Part shown: piece by piece, positions 11,883-21,604 of the stretch | Layout: the number at the start of each line of letters is the position of its first letter | How positions within the stretch are numbered: position 1 is the stretch's first letter | DNA from: a virus | Taxonomy: Duplodnaviria; Caudoviricetes | Length of the DNA stretch: 64,000 nt | IMG/VR virus record: IMGVR_UViG_3300021254_000021 | Span: 1 to 64,000 of that record | Direction: 5' to 3' (one strand) | Made by a program: the position numbers and the translations under genes | The notes under the pieces: generated by a model | The model's database searches: none | Told to the model about the DNA's origin: nothing | Seen by the model: the letters and a program-made list of their open reading frames with translations, nothing else

Positions 11883-11973
11883 AAGTAAATTTCCGTAGTC
11901 TTTTTAGGGATTGAAAATGGGTTTCTTTTCCCCCGAGATCAATTTTACAAAAATTGCACAAAGGAGATTTGTT

Positions 11974-14418
11974 ATGAAAAAAGCGATTCTTTGGTTTTTA
12001 ACTTCTATGGTTATTCTTTCTTCTTGCAGTGAGGAGACAAAGAGTTCACGAGTGTTTCCTGACACACTAGAGACCTCTACTACTATTAGTTCTGTTTGTG
12101 GGGATGGTAAAATCTCTCCAAATGAAGAAGTCTGTGAGGGAAACTTCTTTGTCGTATCTCAGCTTTGTTCAGACTACGGTTATTCTGATGGCTTAGTTAA
12201 GTGTACTTCCTGTTTATTGGATTTCTCAGATTGCACTAGAGAGTTTGACAATAAACCCGTGGATGATCCTGTAGATGATCCTGTAGATGATCCTGTAGAT
12301 GATCCTGTAGATGATCCTGTAGATGATCCTATTTGTGGTAATGGTGTTAAAGAAGGAAATGAGGAGTGTGACTCAGGAATTTTTCTAGGGTCTTGTGATA
12401 TATTTGGTGATTATAATAAAGGTAGTGCTTATTGTATTCAATGTAAGGTGGATCTCTCTCTCTGTTCAAAGGAAACCAACCAGTCAGAGATTCCTAAAGA
12501 TGAACCCGTATGTGGTAATGGGATTATAGAGGAAGGTGAGGAGTGTGATACAGTAATTCAAAATGATGAATTACTTTGCTCTTTTTATGGTGATTATAAT
12601 AAAGGTAACATATCCTGTAGTTCATGTAAGATAGACTTATCTTCATGCTCAAAAGAGACTGTTCCTGTAGAAAACCCAGAACCTGCATGTGGTAATGGGA
12701 TTAAAGAAGATGGAGAAGAGTGTGATGACGGAAATAAGGTTAATACAGATCTTTGCACCAATTTATGTACTCTTCCTAAATGTAATGATGGTATTCTTTC
12801 TCAAGGCGAGGTCTGTGATGGAGATTTGTTTACCATACAGTCTTGTTCTGAATATAACTCTAATTTTAGTTCTGGTTATTTAAAATGTTCTTCATCATGT
12901 ACTATTGATTATTCATCCTGTATAGTTACACCTAAGTGTGGTGATGGTAAAATAAATTCCTCTACTGAAGAATGTGATGGGTCTGTTGGATCACATACAT
13001 GTAAGGATATTTATTCTAATGCTACTGGGAATGTTATTTGTACTTCTTGTAAGTTGGATTATTCTAACTGTAAAGAAGTATGTCCTACCAATAGAGAGTT
13101 TAAGGATGGGGTGTACTCAACATCATCTCTAACCTTTCATAAGGTAACGGAAAAAGGAAAGACATATATTATACTAAGTGGTCAAGTCGGTTTGGTTATT
13201 GATTCAAGTACTGTACAGTGGGTTTATTCCTCTTTAGGAGATGAGGGTTATTATTCCTACTTTAAAGTAGGTTCATGTGATTGTGGTTCATGTAATGTTT
13301 ACTTTAATAATTCTTCTCATTTAAACAAGTCAGATGTTAAATCCGTACCTTCTATAAGCTACACGTATTCTAGTCCGACTATAACTGAAGTACCTACTTA
13401 CTCTGTCCCTTCAATAACAATCCCTGACCCTATTAGGACTGGAGATACTTCTTATCTTTCCTGTAATGATAAGGAATGCAGTGATGCTTCTGACTATTAT
13501 TTGAATATAACATCTTCTCATATTACAGTTTCTACACAAACCTTTAATTGGACGTTTTCTCTTATTCAAGTTCTTGGTGATGATACTTATCTTGTTCATT
13601 ATGATTCTGGTTATGGGCTTCCTAATGACTTACAGAAAGAAGGTGTTACTAACCCGTATGCAGTTATTAGGATTACCAAATCTGATTTATATCGGGTCTG
13701 TGATATTGATACAGCACAGAATATTATAGTTCATGTCTTATCTTGGTCAAATTATAGGGATGTAGCTATAGCTAAAGCAGACTTTAACTCTACCACTTCT
13801 TTTACTTATTTACCTGCATTAAAAGATAAAGAGGATAGTTGTGTATGGTCAGAAGGAACTTTTGAGCTTTTATTAACTAGCTCTAATCCTAAAGGGTTGA
13901 ATAACTATGTAATAAAGGTTGGTATGAAATATAACTCTACATATACTGAGTTAGAGGATTATGCATGGTTTAGAACTTATTTAAATTATTGTTATGATAG
14001 ATCTGTAAATGGTGCTGTATTTAGAACAATGGAAAAACATGAAGATATGGATGGCCATGCTTATAGATCCTTATACAGGAATAATGTTCTTGTATTTGAT
14101 CGTTTAGAAAAGAATATACTGAGGATATATTCGACTTATCCTAAAAATACAGCATGGGATGATTCTCCACAGAGTTTAGATGATGATATTAGGTATGAAT
14201 TAGAGTTTCCTACGGAAGCAAGGCTTAACTTCTTTGCAAGCAGTCAGGGTCGAAGTTATAGTATGGAAGTACTTATGAGTGTTGATAAATACAAACTCTG
14301 TAAGATAAATACTACAAAACATACTAAGGAGTGTGAGGAAGTACAATTAGCTTATTCCTTGGAAAACAATATCCCAGAGTCTATGAAACCAAAGACTTGT
14401 GAAAAGAAATATCAATAA
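11974..14418 (+). CDS. Lipoprotein with myxobacterial-type Cys-rich (CGNG..E..EECD) repeats
   Basis: AAGGAG then ATG 11974; MKKAILWFLTSMVILSSC lipobox; about six CG[DN]G...E.CD units. Confidence 0.8.
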   Translation: MKKAILWFLTSMVILSSCSEETKSSRVFPDTLETSTTISSVCGDGKISPNEEVCEGNFFVVSQLCSDYGYSDGLVKCTSCLLDFSDCTREFDNKPVDDPVDDPVDDPVDDPVDDPVDDPICGNGVKEGNEECDSGIFLGSCDIFGDYNKGSAYCIQCKVDLSLCSKETNQSEIPKDEPVCGNGIIEEGEECDTVIQNDELLCSFYGDYNKGNISCSSCKIDLSSCSKETVPVENPEPACGNGIKEDGEECDDGNKVNTDLCTNLCTLPKCNDGILSQGEVCDGDLFTIQSCSEYNSNFSSGYLKCSSSCTIDYSSCIVTPKCGDGKINSSTEECDGSVGSHTCKDIYSNATGNVICTSCKLDYSNCKEVCPTNREFKDGVYSTSSLTFHKVTEKGKTYIILSGQVGLVIDSSTVQWVYSSLGDEGYYSYFKVGSCDCGSCNVYFNNSSHLNKSDVKSVPSISYTYSSPTITEVPTYSVPSITIPDPIRTGDTSYLSCNDKECSDASDYYLNITSSHITVSTQTFNWTFSLIQVLGDDTYLVHYDSGYGLPNDLQKEGVTNPYAVIRITKSDLYRVCDIDTAQNIIVHVLSWSNYRDVAIAKADFNSTTSFTYLPALKDKEDSCVWSEGTFELLLTSSNPKGLNNYVIKVGMKYNSTYTELEDYAWFRTYLNYCYDRSVNGAVFRTMEKHEDMDGHAYRSLYRNNVLVFDRLEKNILRIYSTYPKNTAWDDSPQSLDDDIRYELEFPTEARLNFFASSQGRSYSMEVLMSVDKYKLCKINTTKHTKECEEVQLAYSLENNIPESMKPKTCEKKYQ
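12262..12330 (+). repeat. 12-bp tandem repeat GATGATCCTGTA (about 5.75 copies) encoding a DDPV linker
   Basis: Perfect repeats read directly. Confidence 0.95.
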
Positions 14419-14501
14419 ATTCTCTTTTCTAAACTAAAATATGTCTATATCTATGGTATAGTGATTAGAGAGGGTTTTTACTCTCTCTGATTGTTTTATA
14501 G

Positions 14502-14530
14502 TTGAATAAAAGATCCTTTTAAGCTATCTT
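14502..14530 (+). promoter_or_regulatory. sigma70-like promoter in front of omegaRNA-like element and HU
   Basis: TTGAAT-N17-TATCTT. Confidence 0.55.
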
Positions 14531-14580
14531 ATATATAGAATTAAACGATAACCAAGTTTAGTTCTATATATTAGAATTAT

Positions 14581-14726
14581 GTACCGTAGGAACTACGGAA
14601 AGTAGGTCTGTGGAGGGTATGGACGCTATGCCGCAAAGCGGCAATGCTGAGTACTCGTTGAATCAGAAAGGAAGATCCGTGAGGATTCCATAGAATCTAA
14701 CGGCCTTTAGGCCGTTGGTAGTTCAA
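14581..14726 (+). ncRNA. Orphan IS200/IS605 right-end, TnpB omegaRNA-like element, copy 1
   Basis: GTACCGTAGGAACTACGG...TCTGTGGAG...GAAT-hairpin-GTAGTTCAA; homologous to 21031..21177. Confidence 0.75.
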
Positions 14727-14750
14727 TACTTTTTATAAAGGAAAAGAAAA

Positions 14751-15032
14751 ATGACAAAAGCAGAAATGGTTGCCAAGGTTCACGAAGCTCTGGAAGGTAA
14801 AGTATCAAAGATGGCCGCTGAAAAAGTGGTAGATACAATTTTTGATGCAATTAAAGCAGAGTTTATGGCAGGTAATGATGTTACCGTAGCAGGTTTCGGT
14901 TCTTTTAAAGTTAAAACACGTGCCGCACGTGAAGCCCGCAATCCTCGTACAGGTGAAGCAGTCCATGTTGCTGAGAAGAAAACTGTTACCTTCAAACCAG
15001 TTGCTAAACTGAAAGATGGTTTGAATAAATAA
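14751..15032 (+). CDS. hup: HU/IHF histone-like DNA-binding protein
   Basis: MTKAE, GFGSF, RAAREARNPRTGE, FKP...LK. Confidence 0.97.
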   Translation: MTKAEMVAKVHEALEGKVSKMAAEKVVDTIFDAIKAEFMAGNDVTVAGFGSFKVKTRAAREARNPRTGEAVHVAEKKTVTFKPVAKLKDGLNK

Positions 15033-15150: not shown

Positions 15151-16764
15151 ATGGCTAAGTCAAAGTTTAAAACATGGTTGTCCAAGTTATTCGGTACACA
15201 AGGTCAGGTACAGATCATTGAAGATCCTAAAGACCCCAGAGATAACTTTTTAAGACAAATTTTTGGTGAAAGGTCAACCTCCTTCTTGTCAGATCTTCAC
15301 ACCTATGCCCAGACAAGATCAGAGCAGTTAGATGAGTACACCACCATGCTTAAGGATGGTGTGACACTTGCCGCAGTTAATTTAATTGTGGAAGATGCAA
15401 CTCAGCTAGACCTAGATACGAATATGGTAGCTTGGGTTACGTCCATAGACAATCCAGAGTTTGCCAAGTCTATGAACGACTTTTTAACCAATAACTTCCA
15501 CATAAATGACATCATTTATTCCATAGCCTATAATGTAGTGGCTTATGGTGAATGCTTTGTTAAAACCCACTATGACGACTTGGATGGTTACTTAAAGTAT
15601 TTCCACCTAGGTGACTACTTTATGCTAGAGGACATTAAAAAAGTTTCCCACTTATTTAAGTACGGTGTTCCTTTAGGGTACATTCGTCGTTTAAAGACAG
15701 AGGAAGGTTATTCTTATATAAAGGATCAAATCCTTCCAGAAAAATCTTACATTCATTTTATTAACGATAAGGGGAATAAGGAATACCTAGCAGATGAGGA
15801 AGAAGGATTGTACATAGGTTATGGTACATCCTTACTAGAGGGCGCACAGTATTATTACCCACAGAGACAGTTATTAGATGATTTAATTCTTTTATCTCGT
15901 CTCACTCGTTCCTCTAAGTACAACTTATTTAAGGTTGAGGTTGGACAGGCTACTTCTCAAGACACCGCCAGAATGATTAGAGAGGTTAAGACAGCTATTC
16001 AGCAGAGACAGGAAGTGTCTGTTTCAAATCAGGTCTTTTCATCCCGTAATTCCCCGCTTCTTTCAGGTGGTAATGTGTACTTCCCAGTCAGAAATGGGTT
16101 GGGTGGTGTAGAGGTACAGCAGATAGCAGATGATCCCAATGTTTCCTCATTAAAGGATATAGACTACTTTAACAATAACTATTACTCTGCATTAGGTGTT
16201 CCTCAATCATTCTTGGGGCAGACAGGTGAATTACCCGCAGGGTTGGGTGATTCTACTCTTACACAGTTGGACATTCGATATGCACGTTTGGTTAAACGTG
16301 TTCAGCGTGTTTTAAAGAATGGTATTAGAGACTTAATTATCTGGAAGTGTCTAATTGATGATATTCTGCCACCAGAGTTTGAGGTAAATATGACTCATAT
16401 TCTTACGGCAGAGGATGATCGAAGATCAAAAATTATCACAGACTCTACACAGCGTATCAGAGATTTGTTTGATATGCTTCAACTTATTGACCCAGAGATT
16501 TTGCAAAAAGCGGATAAACAAAAACTCCTTTACTTTATCTTTAATTCTCTTGGCAGAGATGCAGACGTTATATCTATATTCGAGAATATTTATGCCCAAT
16601 CCGAAGCACCTCAGTCACAGGAAGGTGAGGGGGAGAATGAGGAAGGTGGTATGGAAGATGAAGAAATGGGTGGACCATCTGGTTTTTCCGATGATCAGTT
16701 TGAAACAGAAAGTGGATTAGATGAAGAACCAGATATGGAAATTCCAGATATTCCAGAGGTTTAA
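15151..16764 (+). CDS. Portal protein (T4 gp20-like)
   Basis: LLDD.ILLSRLTRS, F.VEVG, YFPVR.G.GGVEV, DIDYF...YSALGVP..FL, DIRYAR.VKR.Q; acidic tail. Confidence 0.88.
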   Translation: MAKSKFKTWLSKLFGTQGQVQIIEDPKDPRDNFLRQIFGERSTSFLSDLHTYAQTRSEQLDEYTTMLKDGVTLAAVNLIVEDATQLDLDTNMVAWVTSIDNPEFAKSMNDFLTNNFHINDIIYSIAYNVVAYGECFVKTHYDDLDGYLKYFHLGDYFMLEDIKKVSHLFKYGVPLGYIRRLKTEEGYSYIKDQILPEKSYIHFINDKGNKEYLADEEEGLYIGYGTSLLEGAQYYYPQRQLLDDLILLSRLTRSSKYNLFKVEVGQATSQDTARMIREVKTAIQQRQEVSVSNQVFSSRNSPLLSGGNVYFPVRNGLGGVEVQQIADDPNVSSLKDIDYFNNNYYSALGVPQSFLGQTGELPAGLGDSTLTQLDIRYARLVKRVQRVLKNGIRDLIIWKCLIDDILPPEFEVNMTHILTAEDDRRSKIITDSTQRIRDLFDMLQLIDPEILQKADKQKLLYFIFNSLGRDADVISIFENIYAQSEAPQSQEGEGENEEGGMEDEEMGGPSGFSDDQFETESGLDEEPDMEIPDIPEV

Positions 16765-18313: not shown

Positions 18314-20821
18314 ATGCCAAGAGGAATACCCAATAAAAAAGTAACCGAAGAAACAAATAAGAAAACAGAGGAAAATGTAGAGGCTAAGACAGAAGAAAAG
18401 GCAGAGGAAGTAAAAGAGGAAAAAACGGAGACTAAAAAAACTACAAGGAAAACAACAGCCTCTAAGACAACTACAGCAGAATTAGAGAAAGAAAAGAGTG
18501 TGGTTGATTCCATTTACGGGGACTTGTTGGACATGACGGAAAGAGAGGATAACTTTTTCCCGTCAGGGTCATTGGTTATAGATAGTGTACTTTCCAATGG
18601 TAAGGGAATCCCTATGGGTAAATTCATCTCTATTAATTCAGAGAGCGGTATAGGTAAATGCGTTTGTGGTGATACCATTATAAATTTAAATGGTATCTTT
18701 CAGAGAATAGATGAGGGAGACTTTTCAGATGGCTTTACTCCATTTATAGGAGAAATTTTAACTCTTAATAATAACGATACTACATCACATAAATATAGAG
18801 AACGAGTTTGCAGAGTAATACGAATTATAGATCAGTATGGAATGCAGATTCTTTGTACACCAGATCACCCTGTTCTAGTTCTCCATTCTAATTTACAAGA
18901 AGAATGGGTGAAGGCTAAGGATATAAAATTAAAAGATAAGATTATAGGACAAGGTTTTGTTTATAAAAAACCAGACTTTGATCCTGATTTTTATATGAGA
19001 GGGGTTTATTTAGCGGATGGTTCTACAGCAGGTTTACATAAAGAAAACCCTGTTATAACTACAATACAAGAGGAAAGTTCTAAGATAAAAGAAGTTCTTT
19101 CTATGTTAGGTTTCTCTGAAAAAATTGCAGATAATACTAGGATAGGTAAAGATAAATATACTACACTTCTTTGTGAGAAAGTTGGTAAAAAGACATTAGA
19201 GTATTTGCGTTTTTCTGCGGAAAGTAGACCAGACTTTGTTACAAAGTCTTTTTATGAACCTATGTCTTATAATCAGTTGTTGTCTAAGATAGCAGGTATA
19301 TTAGATACGGATGCTTGGGTAGGTTGTGATAGAATAGAGTTTTGTCAGAAGGATCTTACTATTATTGAAGATTTACAGAAGTTTCTCTCTATGATTGGGA
19401 TTGTAGGTAAAAAGACAGAGAAGTTTGTTAAAAAGGTGAATACGACATATTTCAGGCTTCTTTTAAATTTAAGTGAGGCTAAAAAATTAGCTTCACTTAC
19501 AATTGGCTTGGTTCGTATTGTAGGTAGTAAATTAAGTAATCTTCTTCAAAAAAGTGATCCTATTCCTAAAGTATGGGGTAATTCTTCTGAAGCAAGAAAA
19601 ACTTTTTTTGTAGAAAGTGAGGTAATCTTTAATAAAAGGAAGTGTGTAAGGGATCATGACTATAGATGTAGGTTAAATAGTATAGCTAAAAGGAATAGTG
19701 TGTCTGTTAATTCTCTAAGAGAAATGTATAATAATTCTCTTTTAGCTAGAGATTATAGTAAAGTTGAATTACATGAGGTCTTTTGTAAAGAAGAAGTAGA
19801 AGGTGATATGTATGTTTATGATTATACTATTCCGCAAAGCCATTCTTTTTTAACAAATGGTTTAGTTTCTCATAATACGACGTGTTGCCTTCATATTGCT
19901 AGGAATTGTTGTTCTAAGGGTTATCGCTGTCTTTATATAGACACAGAGTGTGGTTTAAACCGTTCCCAGTTAGAGTCTTTCTCAATGATTCCTTTTTTAG
20001 AGAATCGAACATTTATTCCTAAGTATGTTAGAACATATAGAGAGTTAGATGATTTACTAAAACGTGTTCAGAATGATGAAAATTTAAAGTTTATTTTTAT
20101 TGATTCTTTGACAGACATTATACCAGATCAGCTTATTGAAAATAACATCTCTGATGTAAATCAACCTGCTTTGAATGCTGTCATGCAGTCAAGAATATTA
20201 GCCAAGTATAAATTTCCTCTTTCTAATGCAGGTATTACAACATTCTTTGTCTTACAGAATCGTACAAAGATTGGTATGACTTATACCCAACCTACCACAG
20301 TACAGGCGGCAGGTGGTAAATCTGTTGAGTATCACATGGATATAACACTGGAATTAACAAAGAAGGAGTTTTTAACACGTACAATTAAAGGGCATGATAA
20401 ACCTATACCTTATGGTGCAGAGTGTTTTTTAAAGGCTAATAAAAATCGTCATGTACCACCAAAGATTCCAATGCTCCTTCAAGTAATTTTTGGTAAAGGT
20501 GTTTCCAACTCTGGTGCTATTGCGAATGCAATGGTTTTAAATGGTTTAGCTAAGGCTTCCTCTAAAAAGTACACTGTGGATTATAAGGGTGAGGAAGTAG
20601 TGCTTTTAAGTAAAGCTAAATTTGATGCTTTTATTAAGGAACATTTAGAGTATTATAAGGCTATTGTGGAGAGCTGTGGTGGAATTAAGTTAATTCCTGA
20701 TTCGGAGATGATTCAGCCTGTGACTGAAACAAACACAGAGGATGAAGATTCTATAGAGGAATTATCTGTGGAAGAATCTGGTTATGAAGCAGATGAGGAT
20801 GGAATAATCAGCCTTGAGTAA
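18314..20821 (+). CDS. recA: RecA/UvsX-family recombinase, intein-containing
   Basis: SGSLVIDSVL..GIPMG, SESGIGK|TT, YIDTE, FIDSL, QNRTKIG, GGKS. Confidence 0.9.
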   Translation: MPRGIPNKKVTEETNKKTEENVEAKTEEKAEEVKEEKTETKKTTRKTTASKTTTAELEKEKSVVDSIYGDLLDMTEREDNFFPSGSLVIDSVLSNGKGIPMGKFISINSESGIGKCVCGDTIINLNGIFQRIDEGDFSDGFTPFIGEILTLNNNDTTSHKYRERVCRVIRIIDQYGMQILCTPDHPVLVLHSNLQEEWVKAKDIKLKDKIIGQGFVYKKPDFDPDFYMRGVYLADGSTAGLHKENPVITTIQEESSKIKEVLSMLGFSEKIADNTRIGKDKYTTLLCEKVGKKTLEYLRFSAESRPDFVTKSFYEPMSYNQLLSKIAGILDTDAWVGCDRIEFCQKDLTIIEDLQKFLSMIGIVGKKTEKFVKKVNTTYFRLLLNLSEAKKLASLTIGLVRIVGSKLSNLLQKSDPIPKVWGNSSEARKTFFVESEVIFNKRKCVRDHDYRCRLNSIAKRNSVSVNSLREMYNNSLLARDYSKVELHEVFCKEEVEGDMYVYDYTIPQSHSFLTNGLVSHNTTCCLHIARNCCSKGYRCLYIDTECGLNRSQLESFSMIPFLENRTFIPKYVRTYRELDDLLKRVQNDENLKFIFIDSLTDIIPDQLIENNISDVNQPALNAVMQSRILAKYKFPLSNAGITTFFVLQNRTKIGMTYTQPTTVQAAGGKSVEYHMDITLELTKKEFLTRTIKGHDKPIPYGAECFLKANKNRHVPPKIPMLLQVIFGKGVSNSGAIANAMVLNGLAKASSKKYTVDYKGEEVVLLSKAKFDAFIKEHLEYYKAIVESCGGIKLIPDSEMIQPVTETNTEDEDSIEELSVEESGYEADEDGIISLE
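18659..19876 (+). mobile_element. Intein (406 aa) with LAGLIDADG domain in RecA P-loop
   Basis: GK|CVCGDT, CTPDHP, GVYLADG, GILDTD, VYDYTI, VSHN|T. Confidence 0.92.
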
Positions 20822-20852: not shown

Positions 20853-20890
20853 CCCTATCTAATTCTACGGCTTTCTTTATAGGTGTTGAA

Positions 20891-21177
20891 AACTCACGGG
20901 CTTTCTCCAGTGGGACGAGAAAAATTAAAAGAATTTCTAGTAGGCTAAAAAGATTTTTAAGTTATCTTATATTTAGAATTAAACGATAACCAAGTTTAGT
21001 TCTAAATATTAGAATTAAGTATTTTAAAATGTACCGTAGGAACTACGGGAACTAATGTCTGTGGAGGGTATGGACGCTAAGCCGCTTTGCGGCAATGCTG
21101 AGTATTCGATGAAACAGAAAGGAAGATCCGTGAGGACTCCATAGAATCCGAGAGTCTTTAGACTTTTGGTAGTTCAA
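20891..21177 (+). mobile_element. Non-autonomous IS200/IS605-like element: left-end-like hairpin plus omegaRNA-like right end, copy 2 (core 21031..21177)
   Basis: Follows TTGAA; CTCACGGGCTTTCTCCAGTGGG hairpin; right end GAAT-hairpin-GTAGTTCAA; no ORF inside. Confidence 0.7.
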
Positions 21178-21187
21178 AGGTGTTGAA

Positions 21188-21604
21188 ATGCGTAGATTAA
21201 AATGTGAATTAAAAGCTAGGGAATTGGTTAATCGGTCGGATTTAAAGTCCAGACTTAGATCTAAGTACCTCCGTTCTCAATTTGAAAAGTTTACAGAGAA
21301 TGAAGTGTATTTCTCTGTTGATTCACAGTCGAGTCCCGGAAAAAAGCACATAGTTATTCTATCTTCCCCTTCTATCACAGAGGAAACAACTACTAAAGAC
21401 CTCAAACAAATCTTACAAAGAGAGGATATAAAGGTAGCGTGTAGCTGTGATGCTTTTCTTTATCAGGGCTTTAAATTTATTACCTATAAAGCACAGGCAG
21501 GGATTGATCCAGAGGGTCGTGTACCTGTTGTGAGAAACCCAAGACAGAAAGGGATGTTGTGTAAACATATTTTAGCTGTACTAAAGAGCTTTGGAATACA
21601 ATAA
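21188..21604 (+). CDS. SWIM-type Zn-finger protein
   Basis: CSCDAF...CKH. Confidence 0.7.
   Translation: MRRLKCELKARELVNRSDLKSRLRSKYLRSQFEKFTENEVYFSVDSQSSPGKKHIVILSSPSITEETTTKDLKQILQREDIKVACSCDAFLYQGFKFITYKAQAGIDPEGRVPVVRNPRQKGMLCKHILAVLKSFGIQ

Follow-up and report, generated by a model that had tools for sequence, protein, structure and literature searches.

Non-autonomous elements that encode guide RNAs have already been described, and the element analyzed here, element A, joins them. In Geobacillus stearothermophilus, PATE-like elements of the ISGst families encode omegaRNAs that need TnpB in trans, and TTTAT was shown experimentally to be the TAM of the ISGst2 TnpB2 (Meers et al. 2023, PMC10055086). 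PATE-derived RNAs are expressed in Halobacterium (PMC4615843), and the guide RNAs of IS607 TnpBs have RAGATH-18 as their core (Ren et al. 2024, PMC11061315).

Element A lies in the genome of a T4-like jumbo phage of the rumen. The stretch of DNA that was analyzed (the window) covers the opening 64 kb of a viral record of 252,372 bp, for which a completeness of 94% was estimated, and the sequencing runs that hold the locus came from goat, bovine, and other animal gut samples. None of the 50,697 GenBank phages searched by BLASTN matched the locus. Element A sits between the terminator of the upstream gene and the ribosome-binding site of the HU gene, the start codon of which (14751) follows the end of the element by 24 nt (14727-14750). 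The features of the locus, in order of their starting positions, are the following.

14467-14486, + strand: terminator-like hairpin of the upstream 835-aa gene (outside element A)
14495-14499, + strand: left flank TTTAT, the insertion target and presumed TAM (empty-site joint 14499 to 14727)
14500-14726, + strand: element A, a 227-bp IS200/IS605-type mini element without tnpB (absent exactly in a relative's contig)
14502-14530, + strand: promoter-like box TTGAAT-17 nt-TATCTT in the left-end remnant (8 of 12 consensus positions)
14536-14566, + strand: 5' stub hairpin TAGAATT...AGTTCTA (common to copies A, B, L021b, and L035)
14581-14726, + strand: predicted omegaRNA scaffold, 146 nt (homology, structure, covariation)
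14584-14598, + strand: P1 hairpin CCGTAG-GAA-CTACGG (part of scaffold A)
14607-14669, + strand: RAGATH-18-like k-turn/E-loop core (RF03064, below the Rfam threshold)
14670-14689, + strand: GNRA-capped stem (part of scaffold A)
14693-14696, + strand: GAAT directly 5' of the right-end hairpin (with the terminal TCAA at 14723-14726)
14697-14718, + strand: right-end hairpin (part of scaffold A)
14719-14726, + strand: terminal TAGTTCAA (3' end of scaffold A)
14727-14746, + strand: guide-equivalent flank TACTTTTTATAAAGGAAAAG, directly after the element boundary, including the HU ribosome-binding site
14751-15032, + strand: HU gene, 93 aa (PF00216, E 4e-28), a neighbor outside element A
15151-16764: Gp20-type portal gene, in the window

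Like the ISGst PATEs, element A has no protein-coding ORF (none was found within 14500-14726), has IS200/IS605-type ends, and would encode an omegaRNA dependent on a TnpB encoded elsewhere; its scarless insertion and its presumed TAM, TTTAT, are likewise those of the ISGst PATEs and the ISGst2 TnpB2. It differs from the ISGst PATEs in lacking the left hairpin. To the known cases it adds a phage host, here a T4-like jumbo rumen phage; a natural empty site; a tnpB of the matching type that is broken in the same genome; and a lineage without tnpB that extends over several phage genomes.

Element A was also compared with the TnpB omegaRNAs of IS200/IS605 and IS1341-type elements (sotRNAs, PMC4615843; ISDra2-type). 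As in these RNAs, scaffold A derives from the tnpB 3' end plus the right end, has an "RE-like" hairpin with a UUUA loop, and would take its guide from the flank, and its invariant motifs are the same in haloarchaeal, cyanobacterial, and other tnpB loci. In contrast to them, element A has no tnpB upstream; in its place, a promoter-like region of the left end has been fused ~15 nt ahead of the scaffold. With the RAGATH-18/IS607 reRNA (PMC11061315), scaffold A shares a k-turn/E-loop core (CUGUGGAG ... CGUUGAAUCAG) in the middle of the scaffold. However, we rejected membership in RF03064 (RAGATH-18), because scaffold A scored 26.9 bits (E 0.0076) against a gathering score of 44.9 and because the transposase-bearing full-length relatives, L026 and L028, have a divergent Y1 tnpA, not a serine recombinase. 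At gathering thresholds, Rfam found nothing in the window.

The first-pass annotation of this DNA, which was made from the letters alone, had described a 146-nt block ending in GAAT, a hairpin, and TAGTTCAA, 24 nt before HU, and had taken it for a TnpB omegaRNA scaffold without an adjacent tnpB. The block is present at 14581-14726, and its homology to tnpB-linked RNAs, in an element without an ORF, agrees with that description. Judged from homology, structure, and covariation, 14581-14726 is a complete predicted TnpB omegaRNA scaffold. Its folding was stronger than that of shuffled sequences (z = -4.1). The weak RAGATH-18 match recurred directly after a tnpB remnant at 240.5 kb of the phage genome, and the RNA that follows this broken tnpB aligned with copy A motif by motif. 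The motifs common to the two are the P1 hairpin with GGAAC, CTGTGGAG, CGTTGAAnCAGRAA, a GTGA-capped stem, a GC hairpin with a TTTA/TAAA loop, and GGTAGTTCA. The same motif pattern matched 13 phage contigs, in 9 of which it directly follows a tnpB reading frame (split into two frames in one, L019); the copies in the other 4 have no tnpB or only a remnant of its start. It was also found in 110 genome contigs, mostly of haloarchaea, with others from cyanobacteria, Thermotogota, Prevotella, and Selenomonadales.

We built a covariance model, R1, from eight copies. Because only two helices emerged when RNAalifold was applied to the plain MAFFT alignment, we drew the structure manually on copy A and tested it afterward. 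R1 scored copy A and a second copy in the same genome, copy B, at 173 bits and gave full-length matches to the tnpB-linked RNAs of phages, bacteria, and archaea (E values from 1e-15 to 1e-5). In the eight-sequence alignment, 96.5% of the cells of the 36 proposed pairs were paired, and 16 of the 36 pairs were compensatory; none of 500 shuffles was as good, and slid controls were 28 to 47% paired. The terminal hairpins of copies A and B also differ by compensatory changes.

Several details of the earlier description change with this fold. The 15-bp hairpin that it had set apart is present, at 14584-14598, but as a part of the guide RNA and not as a separate feature. The proposed complementarity of GAACTAC near the 5' end to the terminal GTAGTTC holds, and its family-invariant part is GGAAC with GTTC. 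It had also been stated that no tnpB tail lies upstream. However, the scaffold begins with ~45 nt that are homologous to the final tnpB codons of the full-length relatives, so a remnant of the tnpB tail is present as RNA scaffold. The right end does have the IS605-type character assigned to it, with the IS608-like features GAAT ... TCAA. In IS608 of Helicobacter pylori, the subterminal hairpin is reportedly preceded by GAAT and the element terminates in TCAA, and element A is alike in both; it differs from IS608 in its hairpin, its target (TTTAT versus TTAC), and its spacing, and the sequences cannot be aligned. Taken together, the comparisons with full-length relatives show that element A descends from a tnpB element through deletion of the nuclease gene and that it keeps a left-end promoter-like region and the whole right end, which amounts to a complete omegaRNA scaffold.

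The boundaries of element A were given by an empty site. In one DNA run from another study (X6), a 42.5-kb contig from a close relative joins position 14499 directly to 14727, an unambiguous joint that omits exactly 227 nt and inserts no letters; the empty site rests on the alignment of this one contig, which differs from the flanks at about 2% of positions. Another run, X2, holds the filled allele, with element A present. The joint defines element A as 14500-14726, with a left flank ending in TTTAT, and the same TTTAT directly precedes each of the four copies with a surviving left end (A, B, L021b, and L035). The 3' end of the scaffold coincides with the right boundary of the element (14726/14727, directly after TTCAA), so that the flank would supply the guide. 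Because the empty allele has an identical guide-equivalent flank (the differences listed for it start at 14840), the empty site consists of TTTAT plus the same 20 nt that the RNA of copy A would carry as its guide. Element A is thus a bounded mobile insertion 3' of TTTAT; as in PATEs, the insertion is scarless and site specific, with no target duplication. Elsewhere in the genome, the guide of copy A has no second full match and no other TTTAT-flanked match, which fits a role in homing better than regulation of a distant target.

The first-pass annotation had found no tnpA or tnpB in the window and had proposed a search of the full genome for tnpB and for more copies of the element. All Pfam matches to these genes are at 92-241 kb of the 252-kb record, outside the window, as expected from that statement. 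The search yielded a Y1 tnpA, copy B, and four tnpB loci, so genes for possible partners are found elsewhere in the phage, and the annotation's own refuting condition was not borne out.

92.6 kb: tnpB, 403 aa
108 kb: tnpB, IS607-type, with a serine tnpA
184.5 kb: tnpB, 423 aa, with a Y1 tnpA at 185.8 kb (element at 184.4-186.3 kb)
240054-240928: broken tnpB, frames of 129 aa and 174 aa

Three of the four tnpB genes are uninterrupted frames. The one nearest to the type of scaffold A is the 240-kb gene, which has an internal deletion of residues ~126-280 (~155 residues, comprising PF01385 and the RuvC-I region) and is frameshifted. Compared with the intact 450-aa TnpB of a jumbo-phage contig (L023/L154), its remaining parts are 88% (N-terminal) and 80% (C-terminal) identical; a second intact relative, L155, is 87% identical. 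R1 missed the RNA of the 92.6-kb tnpB and matched the 184-kb RNA only in part. Because the 240-kb tnpB is broken and the other tnpB scaffolds differ, the genome has no intact cognate nuclease for this type of scaffold. The broken gene retains a full guide scaffold and right end. The left hairpin and right end of the mini elements resemble the ends of the tnpA- and tnpB-bearing element at 184.4-186.3 kb and of others in the genome.

Copy B, 84% identical to copy A, is a complete mini element.

20876-20880, + strand: left flank TTTAT of copy B
20881-21177, + strand: element B, 297 bp, complete mini element
20893-20914, + strand: left-end hairpin of copy B
21031-21177, + strand: predicted omegaRNA of copy B

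It also carries the promoter-like box and the stub hairpin, and it ends at the same TTCAA as copy A, beyond which the sequences differ; its end is 10 nt before a SWIM-finger ORF (21188-21604). Relative to copy B, copy A is missing ~60 nt, the left-end hairpin among them. An 11-nt direct repeat, AGGTGTTGAAA, flanks copy B (20881-20891 and 21178-21188), which means that its left end, right after TTTAT, starts with the same 11 nt as its own guide-equivalent flank. No target duplication is made by IS200/IS605 elements; self-binding or a recombination artifact may lie behind the repeat.

Including A and B, we found six copies without tnpB (the other four in related phages, two in L021 and one each in L033 and L035) at six different loci: before HU, before the SWIM-finger gene, beside tRNA arrays, and before terminators. 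In copy B, L035, and L021b, the order of the parts is the same: TTTAT, a left-end hairpin GAAAAC-C(C/T)CA(C/T)GG..., the promoter-like box, the stub hairpin, and the 146-nt scaffold ending in TTCAA. These three copies have kept both end hairpins; copy A has only the right one, and the first L021 copy has no left-end region. When viral contigs were searched for exact matches to the 5' stub, only the already known L020 and L021 were returned, and in viral and metagenome collections the scaffold of the A/B subtype was found only in tnpB-less copies, never joined to tnpB. At the phage locus syntenic to that of L035, a 321-aa gene stands in place of the element, and the locus is not a clean empty site.

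One account of these copies is that they are inert relics, i.e., that element A is a tnpB element minus its nuclease, riding along as extra leader sequence, and that its RNA has no present function. The broken cognate-type tnpB in the same genome, the loss of the left-end hairpin from copy A, and the many other end fragments scattered over the genome would all be expected of such decay. The pattern of substitutions is not. The six copies are 86 to 94% identical, and 31 of their 146 scaffold positions vary, but none of the 32 family-invariant positions does (Fisher one-sided P = 1.6e-4), these positions having been defined on 11 copies outside the tnpB-less clade, 10 of which follow a tnpB frame (broken in two cases) and the eleventh of which, L022, keeps only the first tnpB codons. 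The clade departs from the family letters in just two respects, a single compensatory pair (C-G to U-A) and a terminal C-to-A change; the stems have changed by compensation. This argues that the six copies have been kept as guide-RNA scaffolds and are not decaying. The terminal nucleotide changed together with its presumed pairing partner: all six copies have GAAT with TCAA, and most tnpB-linked relatives have GAAG with TCAC. In IS608, GAAT and TCAA are pairing partners, as Barabas is said to have reported in 2008. By this rule, the joint change suggests that a Y1 transposase continues to shape the right end. We therefore consider an inert relic a real but distinctly minor possibility.

The promoter that the first-pass annotation had assigned to element A is a weak match. 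The box TTGAA[A/T], 17 nt, TATCT[T/A] has equivalently placed counterparts ahead of tnpB in the full-length relatives, within their left ends (the 92.6-kb and 240-kb elements, L154, and L155), but in element A it agrees with the consensus at 8 of 12 positions and a scan for sigma-70 promoters made no call there. A metatranscriptome contig of 277 nt spans 14644-14920 with 100% identity, covering the 3' part of the scaffold, the junction, and HU; its depth was 2.8, carry-over of DNA is possible, and the sample is probably the same as that of the record. A second RNA run, X21, did not cover the locus, which is not proof of absence. There is no terminator between element A and HU; the next one comes after HU. 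At L033 and L035, terminators follow TTCAA within 6-45 nt, and these copies would thus form stand-alone RNA genes.

The RNA contig that bridges element A and HU bears on a second account, also raised in the first-pass annotation, in which the element has been domesticated as a promoter or 5' leader and drives or stabilizes the HU mRNA independently of TnpB. Its position between a terminator and the HU ribosome-binding site, its sense orientation, and its promoter-like box would suit this role, and other copies are also found just before genes or tRNA arrays. However, the close relative has HU without the element; the cassette occurs elsewhere before the SWIM gene, tRNA arrays, and, in L033 and L035, terminators rather than genes; and the conserved positions are exactly those of tnpB-linked guide RNAs. 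We regard a domesticated HU leader as unlikely.

Still less likely, in our judgment, is that the RNA guides a nuclease-dead TldR that represses HU or another gene, a partner that had been suggested along with TnpB. The guide-equivalent flank does cover the HU ribosome-binding site, and the left junction of copy B (TTTAT plus 11 nt) matches copy B's own guide. But no TldR-like, nuclease-dead gene was found in the phage, the sole defective tnpB being split by a deletion and a frameshift; in cis, the DNA that matches the guide is preceded by TTCAA, not TTTAT; and a distant target is made improbable by the lack, noted above, of any other TTTAT-flanked match to guide A.

The reading that we favor, and hold to be probable though well short of certain, is that element A is a non-autonomous, PATE-like IS200/IS605 element, with a guide RNA that depends on TnpB in trans and would be directed at the empty site. 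In the mechanism that we propose, transcription would run toward HU, from the element's own box or by read-through, and give an RNA consisting of the scaffold with the HU 5' flank as its guide. We infer that this RNA acts in trans with a TnpB, which might be supplied by a co-infecting relative (the intact 450-aa enzyme), by another TnpB of the phage, or by the host. The loaded complex would cut the empty site, TTTAT followed by TACTTTTTATAAAGG..., in genomes that are free of the element, and recombinational repair from a filled genome would then copy the element in, as homing or retention. Copy B, with both end hairpins, could be moved by the Y1 TnpA of the phage; copy A, having lost the left hairpin, is probably fixed in place as far as TnpA is concerned. 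The broken cognate-type tnpB, the different scaffolds of the three other tnpB genes, the failure to find a tnpB-linked copy of the A/B subtype in the viral and metagenome collections, the weak match to a promoter, the absence of the left hairpin from copy A, and the thin RNA contig are points against the PATE-like reading.

A bolder extension of the PATE-like reading, which we consider speculative and rather doubtful, is that the tnpB-less copies are a self-sustaining, "guide-only" selfish lineage in jumbo phages. Such a lineage, consisting of a promoter and a scaffold, would rely on TnpB borrowed from the host or a co-infecting phage and so cleave rivals that lack the element near essential genes (HU, the recA neighborhood, and tRNA arrays) and would spread by repair. 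If so, it would be a hyperparasite of the TnpB system as well as a weapon between phages, and the match between the guide and the left junction of copy B could add self-regulation.

With its filled and empty alleles, its predicted TAM, TTTAT, and its 20-nt target, the locus is a natural, bounded test case for TnpB guides that act in trans. Candidate nucleases are the intact 450-aa relative and the three TnpBs encoded by uninterrupted frames in the genome, and a candidate transposase is also present. Provided that the guide does work in trans, guide-only elements need no nuclease of their own to persist in phages and spread among them. Such persistence, if true, would bear on the modularity of RNA-guided systems and on a route toward CRISPR arrays and TldR. 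For annotation, two structured "intergenic" blocks of the phage have been explained.

Other observations were made along the way. The genome has at least 10 IS200/IS605-type ends. At 80025-80115 (- strand) is a mini element of ends only, consisting of a left hairpin, ~20 nt, a right hairpin, and GGTAGTTCAC; its ends are of the same type as those of the 92.6-kb tnpB element. At 195991-196927, a right-end-like hairpin and GGTAGTTCAC come no more than 370 nt after an IS607-like serine tnpA (187 aa), with no tnpB between them, and a second serine tnpA, at 107077, adjoins the 108-kb tnpB. More weak R1 matches or right-end-like hairpins, some ending in GGTAGTTGAC, were found on the - strand at 131483-131587, 191779-191879, and 224527-224601. 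In L021 (1885-3104; also in L020 and L034), two tnpB-less copies bracket a run of sequences resembling tRNA genes. L022 (356-517) has another form of deletion, in which ~30 N-terminal tnpB codons are fused directly to the scaffold.

The int-alpA RNA motif (RF02996) scored 40.6 bits, above its threshold of 35.8, at genome positions 93878-93942 (- strand; L009, 2612-2676), just upstream of the 92.6-kb tnpB, and gave a weak score upstream of the broken 240-kb tnpB (L011, 949-1017). The motif may be a 5' UTR or left-end structure of such tnpB elements.

Among the neighboring genes, relatives of the portal protein, at 22% identity, were too distant for comparing the region upstream of HU. The 835-aa gene upstream of copy A (11911-14418) encodes a protein that looks secreted and contains DPV repeats as well as Cys-rich DUF4215 repeats. 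Copy B is directly preceded by a RecA-like gene (18314-20821) that is split by an intein with a LAGLIDADG domain.
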